Shown one piece after another: positions 30,674 to 34,367 of a stretch of 64,000 bases of DNA. The stretch lies in NCBI RefSeq assembly GCF_988242995.1, contig NZ_OZ547043.1; one strand, written 5' to 3'. Position numbers and translations under genes: made by a program. Within the stretch, counting starts at the first letter, position 1, and each line of letters begins with the position of its first letter. The notes under the pieces were generated by a model. It was not told where the DNA came from, searched no databases, and worked only from the letters and a program-made list of their open reading frames with translations.

Positions 30674-31665
30674 TTACTCGCGGAACAGCGCTTCGATATT
30701 CAGCCCCTGCGTTTGCAGGATTTCGCGCAAACGGCGCAGGCCTTCAACCTGAATCTGGCGAACACGTTCACGGGTGAGGCCAATTTCACGACCTACATCT
30801 TCCAGTGTTGCCGCTTCGTACCCCAGCAAACCGAATCGACGTGCCAGTACTTCACGCTGTTTGGCGTTCAGCTCGAACAGCCATTTGACGATGCTCTGCT
30901 TCATATCGTCATCTTGCGTGGTATCTTCCGGACCGTTCTCTTTTTCATCGGCCAGGATGTCCAGCAACGCTTTTTCGGAATCACCACCCAGCGGGGTGTC
31001 TACCGAGGTAATGCGCTCGTTAAGACGAAGCATACGGCTGACGTCATCAACTGGCTTATCCAGTTGCTCTGCGATCTCTTCCGCACTTGGTTCGTGGTCC
31101 AGTTTATGGGACAACTCGCGTGCGGTTCGCAGGTAAACGTTCAGCTCCTTTACGATGTGAATCGGCAAACGAATAGTACGGGTTTGGTTCATAATCGCCC
31201 GTTCGATCGTCTGGCGAATCCACCAGGTTGCGTATGTTGAGAAGCGGAAACCACGTTCCGGGTCAAACTTCTCTACCGCGCGGATCAGCCCCAGGTTGCC
31301 CTCTTCGATCAGGTCCAGCAACGCCAGACCACGATTGCCATAACGGCGGGCAATTTTTACCACCAGACGCAAGTTACTCTCGATCATCCGGCGGCGGGAG
31401 GCAACATCTCCACGCAGTGCGCGACGCGCAAAATAAACTTCTTCTTCGGCCGTTAACAGTGGTGAATAACAATCTCACCAAGGTAAAGCTGAGTCGCGTC
31501 CAACACACGCTGTGTGGCTCCCTGCGATAACAGTTCCTCTTCGGCCAAATCGTTATCACTGGGTTCCTCTTCTACTAAGGCCTTTTCGTCAAAAACCTCA
31601 ACTCCGTTCTCATCAAATTCCGCATCTTCATTTAAATCATGAACTTTCAGCGTATTCTGACTCAT
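30674..31665 (-). pseudogene. rpoS: RNA polymerase sigma factor RpoS (sigma-S), disrupted by a -1 frameshift
   Basis: N-terminal [17 protein letters not shown]...LYLGEI reads in ORF 31453..31701 and stops after IVIHHC; the rest ([10 protein letters not shown]...ALFRE) is ORF 30674..31387 in another frame; span is 992 nt, not a multiple of 3. Confidence 0.8.
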
Positions 31666-31727
31666 AAGGTGGCTCCTACCCGTGATCCCTTGACGGAACA
31701 TTCAAGCAAAAGCCTGGTTCCGCCGAT

Positions 31728-32867
31728 TTATCGCTGCGGCAAATAACGCAGCGGGTTTACGGATTTCCCCTTGTAACGAATTTCAAAATGCAAGCGTGTT
31801 GAACTGGTTCCGGTGCTACCCATGGTTGCTATTTTTTGCCCCGCCTTCACTTCTTGTTGTTCCCGGACCAGCATTGTGTCGTTATGGGCGTAGGCACTCA
31901 GGTAATCATCATTATGTTTGATGATAATCAGATTACCGTAGCCGCGCAGCGCGTTACCGGCATAAACAACGCGGCCATCTGCGGTCGCGATAATTGCCTG
32001 TCCTTTGCTGCCTGCGATATCAATCCCCTTGTTGCCCCCCTCAGAAGCGCCAAAGGTTTCGATCACTTTGCCCTCAGTCGGCCAGCGCCAGGTGGAGATA
32101 GGCGTACTGGTTGATGTACTGCTGACAGTCGGCTCGGTTGTGCTTGCTGTTGGTACCGTTACAGGCGCTGTGACCGTGGTCGCAGTTGGCTTGTTGTTCG
32201 GCAACATTTTGTTAGCACTCTGTTCACCCGAAGACTCAGAATACGTAATTGTCGGTTGCGAAGCAACAGCAACGGTGGAATTTTGTGCAGGCTTGATCAC
32301 AACTCCTTGCTCTGCTGCATCGGCCTGGGTAATGGCATTTCCGCCAGTGATTGGCGTACCGGAAGCATTACCCACCTGTAAGGTCTGACCGACGTTCAGC
32401 GCGTATGGTGCCTGAATATTGTTGCGCTGAGCAAGGTCACGGAAATCGTTGCCAGTAATCCAGGCGATATAGAAAAGTGTGTCGCCTTTTTTCACGGTAT
32501 AGGTACTGCCGCTATAACTGCCTTTCGGAATGTTCCCATACTGACGGTTGTAGACGATGCGTCCGTTTTCCATCTGTACCGGCTGCTGAGCTACTGGCTG
32601 CACCGGCTGGATTTGCGGTTGTTGAGTTGCCTGAATTTGTGGCTGCTGTACCGGCTGAATTTGCGGTTGCTGAGCTGTAGACGTCGTCCCCATTTTCGGC
32701 GGCGGCGTAATCAACATACCAGAATTGGTATTTGCAGGCGCATTGCCATTAACGGAGCTGACCGGGGCCGGTGGATTTGAAGTGTCAGAACAGCCTGCCA
32801 GCCATAGCGAAACCAGTGACAAAGCCGCAATGCGGCGAACGGTGAATTTTGGGCTTCCCGCGCTCAT
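31728..32867 (-). CDS. nlpD: Murein hydrolase activator lipoprotein NlpD (LysM + LytM domains)
   Basis: 379-aa ORF with lipobox LAGC and Q/P-rich repeat region. Confidence 0.95.
32606..32677. repeat. Three imperfect ~24-bp tandem repeats inside nlpD encoding QQPQIQ(P/A)V repeats
   Basis: Repeated CTGAATTTGCGGTTGCTGAG-like units read from sequence. Confidence 0.6.
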
Positions 32868-33005
32868 TTATCCCCCAGGAAAAATTGGTTAATAACCAGT
32901 GACATAATTACCGTGCAAGGCACCATACTGAACACTGGAAAAGATGTTCCGATACGCTGACCTGCGGCAAAATAACCAGGAAAAATCCAGGTATTTCCTC
33001 ACGTT

Positions 33006-34367
<1,362 letters not shown>

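Follow-up and report, generated by a model that had tools for sequence, protein, structure and literature searches.

Length alleles of a known in-frame coding repeat in the N-terminal linker of Escherichia coli NlpD

The NlpD protein of Escherichia coli contains an amino acid repeat for which Lange and Hengge-Aronis (1994) are reportedly a source alongside a second paper of the same year. The repeat is named in the title of that second paper (Ichikawa, Li, Fu and Clarke 1994, J Bacteriol 176:1630), as it appears in the reference list of PMC1084345. The NlpD linker repeat has been known since 1994, and it is a real but ordinary feature of this gene. NlpD has been described as a LysM domain plus a degenerate LytM domain, with two linkers that are predicted to be disordered, and its N-terminal linker alone has a weak affinity for midcell (Tsang et al. 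2017, PMC5533458). A length difference in the gene has also been reported from Salmonella Typhimurium UK-1, which carries a 12-bp in-frame deletion in nlpD (PMC3391293). In the literature library that we searched, no paper described copy-number alleles of nlpD.

Here we consider a stretch of 64,000 nucleotides (the window) from contig NZ_OZ547043.1 of RefSeq assembly GCF_988242995.1, in which an earlier reading of the letters alone (the original prediction) had marked a tandem repeat within nlpD. The nlpD coding sequence lies at 31728-32867 on the minus strand and encodes 379 amino acids, as judged from the list of open reading frames, Pfam and the RefSeq annotation of all matches; indeed, ‘murein hydrolase activator NlpD’ is the RefSeq name in 5,420 of 5,420 matching E. 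coli genomes. The gene order surE-pcm-nlpD-rpoS is found among the open reading frames of the window, and is the same in the RefSeq annotation of TW14359 and in two other assemblies. The N-terminus of the protein is a lipoprotein signal peptide, composed of an n-region made basic by K7, R11 and R12, a hydrophobic core and the lipobox LAGC, which we read directly from the sequence (residues 23-26; 32790-32801, minus strand). Under the lipobox rule, mature NlpD begins at Cys26, the residue that bears the lipid anchor. A peptidoglycan-binding LysM domain is encoded 3' of the repeat-bearing linker (residues 123-165; 32373-32501, minus strand; Pfam PF01476, E=2.7e-12), and a LytM domain (Peptidase_M23), probably degenerate, is found at residues 279-372 (31752-32033, minus strand; Pfam PF01551, E=4.6e-33). 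This succession of LysM and a C-terminal Peptidase_M23, with linkers between them, is the arrangement by which NlpD is recognised. Active M23 enzymes carry the canonical motifs HxxxD and HxH, in place of which NlpD, read by eye, appears to have NKGID and RLHFE respectively.

The N-terminal linker extends from Cys26 to the LysM domain (residues 27-122, 96 residues) and contains 17 glutamines and 15 prolines, being also rich in serine, threonine and asparagine. No PDB chain covers this linker, and the homologues EnvC and DipM match the LytM part only. A difference in annotation concerns the start of the gene: RefSeq (PGAP) places the first codon of nlpD 15 codons 3' of the ATG that we use (the intervening codons being 32823-32867 of the window), yielding 364 versus 379 amino acids, and this shorter form leaves 10 residues before the lipobox cysteine and is without a basic n-region. 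Judged from these residues, the 379-amino-acid start, which includes K7, R11 and R12, looks more plausible as the beginning of a signal peptide than the 364-amino-acid start. The linker between the two domains also varies, since one database NlpD of 340 amino acids has its three N-terminal units intact and lacks a 39-residue part of the T/S/P-rich second linker (QPTITYSE…VPTAS; about 32100-32220 in the window), which indicates that the second linker also tolerates large in-frame deletions.

The repeat itself consists of three in-frame 24-bp units encoding residues Q66-V89 (32601-32672, minus strand), followed by a degenerate fourth unit (32577-32600). On the minus strand, unit 1 (32649-32672; CAGCAACCGCAAATTCAGCCGGTA) encodes QQPQIQPV at residues 66-73, unit 2 (32625-32648; CAGCAGCCACAAATTCAGGCAACT), the most diverged, encodes QQPQIQAT at residues 74-81, unit 3 (32601-32624; CAACAACCGCAAATCCAGCCGGTG) encodes QQPQIQPV once more at residues 82-89, and degenerate unit 4 encodes QPVAQQPV at residues 90-97. 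Units 1 and 3 are identical at 21 of 24 nucleotides, units 1 and 2 at 17 of 24 and units 2 and 3 at 15 of 24 (62-88%), and QQPQIQ occurs exactly three times in the protein, with a period of eight residues. The open reading frame, the Pfam hits to LysM and Peptidase_M23 and the RefSeq naming all agree with the original prediction that this is the linker repeat of NlpD. The span that it gave, 32606-32677, covers the same array but lies 5 nt out of register, and its motif QQPQIQ(P/A)V holds for the three QQPQIQ cores but not for the end of the middle unit, which is AT, making the motif QQPQIQ(PV/AT).

The 24-bp periodicity exceeds chance in the 64-kb window, where self-matches at a lag of 24 of at least 32/48 occur only at the clustered positions of this array, with a peak at 32604. 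Tandem Repeats Finder, run over 31500-34000 with a minimum score of 30, did not report the array because its units are too diverged. The longest exact words within the array are of 11 and 12 nt, and no exact match between neighbouring units exceeds 9 nt. The 11-nt word, CAACCGCAAAT, is found in unit 1 (32659-32669, minus strand; gene nt 199) and, 48 nt away, in unit 3 (32611-32621, minus strand; gene nt 247), and is the point at which 48-bp deletions and duplications are joined. The 12-nt word, CAGCCGGTACAG, is found at the boundary of units 1 and 2 (32646-32657, minus strand; gene nt 211) and, 72 nt away, at the end of unit 4 (32574-32585, minus strand; gene nt 283), and forms the junction of 72-bp deletions and duplications. 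We consider it probable that this is a coding minisatellite, short, imperfect and in frame, which lies in the Q/P-rich disordered N-terminal linker by which the LysM and LytM domains of NlpD are tethered to its lipid anchor in the outer membrane, and which serves as a spacer and has no direct effect on rpoS.

The nlpD allele of the window is an uncommon one, given that at least 99% identity to it over 351 nt (32450-32800) is found in only 86 of the 5,420 genomes; over the same interval K-12 is 98.0% identical to the window, and strain Res13-Lact-PER13-34 (O169:H41) matches the window exactly. Amino acid variants within the units occur elsewhere, such as Q67P in UTI89 and Q74K in O91 RM7190, and strain Z0117EC0005 has A65T together with a change of AT to SA.

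We surveyed copy number across 5,426 complete E. coli genomes, 5,420 of which have the locus, with queries specific to each allele, taken from natural sequences or made synthetically, and an E-value ceiling low enough to admit nothing short of one nearly full-length alignment. Thresholds for the two-, four- and five-unit queries were checked on simulated alleles from five natural backgrounds, and those for the one-unit and plus or minus 72-bp queries were set by estimate; the sizes queried were one, two, four and five units and plus or minus 72 bp. Copy number is altered in 64 of the 5,420 genomes (about 1.2%), and the original prediction that it varies between strains, for which it had proposed a comparison of alleles, is supported. 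The commonest alteration by far is a 48-bp deletion that leaves one QQPQIQPV unit, which was found in 61 genomes, each as a single ungapped match. A 72-bp deletion, in which QQPQIQPV passes directly into QMENGR, occurs in two genomes, and a 48-bp duplication giving five units occurs in one, the baboon isolate PapRG-04-4. By contrast with these, the two-unit, four-unit and +72-bp alleles were each found in none of the 5,426 complete genomes. The reference length of three units is left for about 5,356 genomes (98.8%), a figure obtained by subtraction, and it agrees with the observation that 39 of 39 evenly spaced E. coli-type matches span exactly the length of the query.

Sequences beyond the complete genomes extend this picture. 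In protein clusters, a 363-amino-acid NlpD with one unit represents 191 sequences. Units 2-3-4 are duplicated exactly and in tandem (72 bp) in the draft E. coli genome GCA_044690665.1, and the array of the divergent Escherichia genome GCA_026283405.1 numbers seven units, among them the product of a recent 72-bp duplication. The +48- and +72-bp alleles are singletons, each known from one assembly, and the genomes sampled are non-independent, as 28 of the 61 deletion genomes share one haplotype. The one-unit nlpD of strain OkiPb01695 (NZ_AP042570.1) is annotated as 1,041 bp versus 1,047 bp in other one-unit alleles, and this 6-bp shortfall points to a further small in-frame indel downstream of the stretch compared.

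Several simpler ways of counting were tried and abandoned. A 100-nt three-unit megablast query missed 1,476 genomes without a 28-nt exact word, and bands of coverage and identity in blastn were dropped after pieces of deletion alleles proved to be joined to at least 80% coverage, with only 4 genomes looking aberrant. Likewise, the figure of 1,972 genomes with at least 80% coverage of a 90-nt one-unit query is an artefact of joined pieces, which local BLAST explains. Coverage summaries are misleading for this locus because BLAST splits alignments at gaps of 24-48 nt and the pieces are then re-joined.

The junctions of the altered alleles are highly regular, nearly every one of them lying in CAACCGCAAAT (copies 48 nt apart) or CAGCCGGTACAG (copies 72 nt apart). 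Alleles with the 48-bp deletion follow unit 1 through the 11-nt word and continue with the remainder of unit 3. The five-unit allele is their exact reciprocal, in that units 1 and 2 are followed by a hybrid, which begins as unit 3 and ends as unit 1, and then by units 2 and 3. The -72- and +72-bp alleles both join at the 12-nt word, with unit 4 being gained or lost together with units 2 and 3. A different breakpoint is seen in the deletion allele of PEC145, which retains unit 1 whole and joins at the 7-nt sequence GTGCAGC. These exact words were listed before the survey was made and predicted alleles of +48 and -72 bp, both of which were then found. All observed alleles are in frame. The locus accordingly shows in-frame head-to-tail units, copy-number polymorphism and junctions at exact homology between units, which are the marks of a coding VNTR. 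It does not behave as a highly mutable typing marker, with about 98.8% of genomes sharing one length and no change by a single unit.

A mechanism consistent with these junctions is that replication slippage, or unequal exchange, between short exact homologies would give rise to the length changes, while synonymous divergence between adjacent units would keep the rate low and suppress steps of 24 bp. Indeed, the lack of 24-bp changes is as expected, because adjacent units have no more than 9 nt of exact sequence in common, and the low rate may be explained in the same manner, because synonymous divergence has broken up the repeat. The slipped-strand mispairing invoked by the original prediction fits the position of the junctions in short exact repeats, but the steps are of 48 or 72 bp only and about 98.8% of genomes are stable in length. 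Phase variation was also considered as an interpretation and rejected, given that the units are imperfect and of 24 bp, that every allele is in frame and that there is no on/off tract. The repeat would contribute only the length of a spacer, with the alleles changing the 96-residue linker by 17-25%; they would be tolerated, with little or no effect on the function of NlpD, and from the sequences compared we infer that the repeat alleles are neutral.

The 48-bp deletion is found on at least four local haplotypes. The TW14359-type allele corresponds to the O157 three-unit allele minus 48 bp, and carries both the GCG codon for Ala65 and, 57 bp upstream, the lineage-specific N46H. Other alleles with the 48-bp deletion are found on an O91-like GCC background, on a K-12-like background and on one further background. 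From this distribution it is likely that the deletion arose independently at least four times. Recombination is frequent in the mutS-rpoS region, and some of the deletion haplotypes could represent one deletion that was moved between backgrounds by short tracts of gene conversion or recombination.

The TW14359-type haplotype accounts for 28 of the 61 deletion genomes, and every one of the 28 genomes listed under it carries the deletion. They include the O157:H7 strain TW14359 (NC_013008.1) and also EC4115, SS17, SS52, JEONG-1266 and RM6067W; the O157:H7 strain Z892 has three units. We take TW14359 and EC4115 to be strains of clade 8 from the 2006 spinach outbreak. For this group of 28 genomes, the 48-bp deletion looks like a lineage marker, and could be a simple one to use. 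In the same literature library, no paper was found on the 48-bp deletion shared by these O157:H7 strains, or on any connection of nlpD with O157 clade 8.

Outside E. coli, the three units are kept in Escherichia fergusonii (as QQPQIQSV/SA/PV), and the same is true of the E. fergusonii-like allele of ‘E. coli’ RM9387. In Citrobacter, Salmonella, Kosakonia, Enterobacter, Lelliottia and others, PQIQPV occurs once, within a Q/P/V-rich linker of variable length, and the NlpD proteins of related genera range from 362 to 385 amino acids overall. The presence of one PQIQPV in related genera implies that the triplication is specific to Escherichia and that the length of the linker is evolutionarily free; the array is, as judged from these protein comparisons, an Escherichia-specific amplification of a single PQIQPV motif. 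The nlpD of RM9387 (NZ_CP009104.1) is 81.8% identical to that of the window, has a 3-bp insertion, and encodes units ending in SV, SA and PV as in proteins of the E. fergusonii type, which suggests either a segment imported near the recombination-prone rpoS or a divergent lineage.

The position of the array within nlpD raises the matter of rpoS, since PrpoS is internal to nlpD and starts transcription 567 nt before the rpoS ATG, and since bicistronic nlpD-rpoS RNA is also made at a low level (PMC10948607). The original prediction was correct in placing the rpoS promoter within nlpD. In the window the rpoS ATG is at 31665 (minus strand), and the published distance of 567 nt puts the presumed start site at 32232. 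A plausible promoter, the position of which follows from that distance, is found in the region 32232-32266 (minus strand), with TTGCTT and TATTCT separated by 17 nt at 32238-32266 and a start site near 32232. A scan for the sigma-70 consensus did not flag PrpoS, because its -35 element is weak, and Rfam recognised no RNA family on either strand of 31300-33100. The repeat is located 369-440 nt upstream of the presumed start site. At this distance it is outside the main rpoS mRNA with its 567-nt leader and far from the core of the promoter, and it is contained only in the low-level read-through transcript of nlpD and rpoS.

The rpoS gene of the window is itself frameshifted. Its reading frame (31453-31665, minus strand) is interrupted by a deletion at about 31470, where one G is lost at codon 66 (wild-type GAG ATT GGT TAT, here GAG ATT GTT ATT), such that translation would stop after 70 residues and the remainder forms a separate open reading frame at 30674-31387. 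This 1-bp deletion was found in none of the 5,426 complete E. coli genomes, the best matches being 99.4% identical with 162 nt against the 161-nt query. The frameshift may be an rpoS-null mutation private to this genome, or else an error in a two-base homopolymer.

Three other explanations of the length alleles deserve weighing against that of a passive spacer. A change in the repeat might alter the expression of rpoS, which is transcribed through nlpD and from within it, as the original prediction had suggested, and the bicistronic nlpD-rpoS RNA, which includes the repeat, together with the location of PrpoS within nlpD, would allow for such an effect (PMC10948607). However, a direct effect is unlikely because the array is far from the promoter and the variants are all in frame: the main rpoS mRNA starts 369-440 nt downstream and does not include the repeat, and variants that remain in frame would cause no polarity. 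The authors of the UK-1 study reached the same conclusion for their own nlpD indel, judging the 12-bp deletion to be outside the rpoS promoter region (PMC3391293), and the rpoS of the window would itself be inactivated by its frameshift, independently of the repeat. The suggested influence on the context of rpoS is, on this evidence, unsupported, and we regard this explanation as highly improbable. Almost as doubtful is the proposal that the variants are errors of assembly or sequencing, or descend from one old deletion spread by recombination, with no recurrent slipping. The +48- and +72-bp alleles are indeed singletons, ‘E. coli’ RM9387 has an E. fergusonii-like nlpD allele, and the nlpD-rpoS neighbourhood is generally known as a recombination hot spot. 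Yet the array, at 72-96 bp, would fit within any sequencing read. The 48-bp deletion turns up repeatedly, in 61 finished genomes that many laboratories produced and in the 191-member cluster of 363-amino-acid proteins, and the deletion alleles keep the lineage-specific SNPs of their own backgrounds 10-60 bp from the junction and show two breakpoints. Moreover, there are four classes of allele, each at its predicted short homology, a pattern that artefacts would hardly produce.

A further possibility is that copy number tunes function, by setting the reach of NlpD from the outer membrane to septal peptidoglycan or by providing a weak motif for midcell targeting or interaction, in which case the length alleles would be adaptive, as for instance in the 28 TW14359-type genomes with the 48-bp deletion. 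The N-terminal linker fused alone gives some midcell enrichment, and the reach of the tether has been discussed as a possible regulatory principle, but the same authors argue that, with two such long linkers, anchoring in the membrane would not be enough by itself to restrict reach (PMC5533458). The retention of three units in 98.8% of E. coli and in E. fergusonii suggests some constraint, whereas related genera manage with one motif and with varied linker lengths, in proteins of 362-385 amino acids. Similarly, the deletion is carried by all 28 of the TW14359-type genomes listed, but sharing within a clonal group is equally expected from hitch-hiking, and elsewhere the deletion is sporadic, its hosts and backgrounds being unrelated and showing no clear ecological trend. 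We therefore view functional tuning as unlikely. The stronger proposal, that tether length is a selectable functional variable of NlpD, with contractions of 16 or 24 residues altering the coupling of outer-membrane invagination to the activation of AmiC, we hold to be quite improbable; were it true, the alleles with one, three, five and seven units would constitute a natural series for the ‘reach’ model of NlpD regulation. The passive spacer remains our preferred reading. These natural alleles could also serve in tests of models of NlpD tether length.

Compared with the systems described previously, the array of the window is the ‘unusual amino acid repeat’ of E. coli NlpD from 1994, in the same gene, protein and locus, and the protein sequence of the repeat is identical in K-12. 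The K-12 allele differs from that of the window by few and mostly synonymous SNPs (96% identity over 100 nt), with no difference in kind. Experimenters, moreover, handle the linker that contains it as a disordered spacer. What we add is modest, namely a quantified allele spectrum across 5,426 complete genomes, and amounts to a minor detail of population genetics, not to any new class of element. The 12-bp deletion of Salmonella UK-1 is also an in-frame indel of nlpD (PMC3391293), and its deleted sequence suggests that it affects the same Q/P-rich linker; it differs in belonging to another genus, which has a single PQIQPV and no 24-bp triplication, and in the size of the deletion. Simple-sequence contingency loci share with the array the proposed mechanism of repeat-mediated slippage, but the NlpD array is without on/off frameshifting or a perfect tract of short units, changes at a low rate and provides no switch. 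The closest resemblance in form is to the coding VNTRs of bacterial envelope proteins, with which the array has in common a unit that is a multiple of three, a low-complexity linker, polymorphism between strains and junctions at exact homology. Unlike typical VNTR markers, however, the units of NlpD are strongly diverged at synonymous sites (62-88% identity), and the array is far more stable and changes only in steps of two or three units. This greater stability may be attributed to the synonymous divergence of the units, and the length steps, which follow the map of exact homology (48 or 72 bp, never 24), make the NlpD repeat a small example of how synonymous divergence could stabilise a coding repeat.
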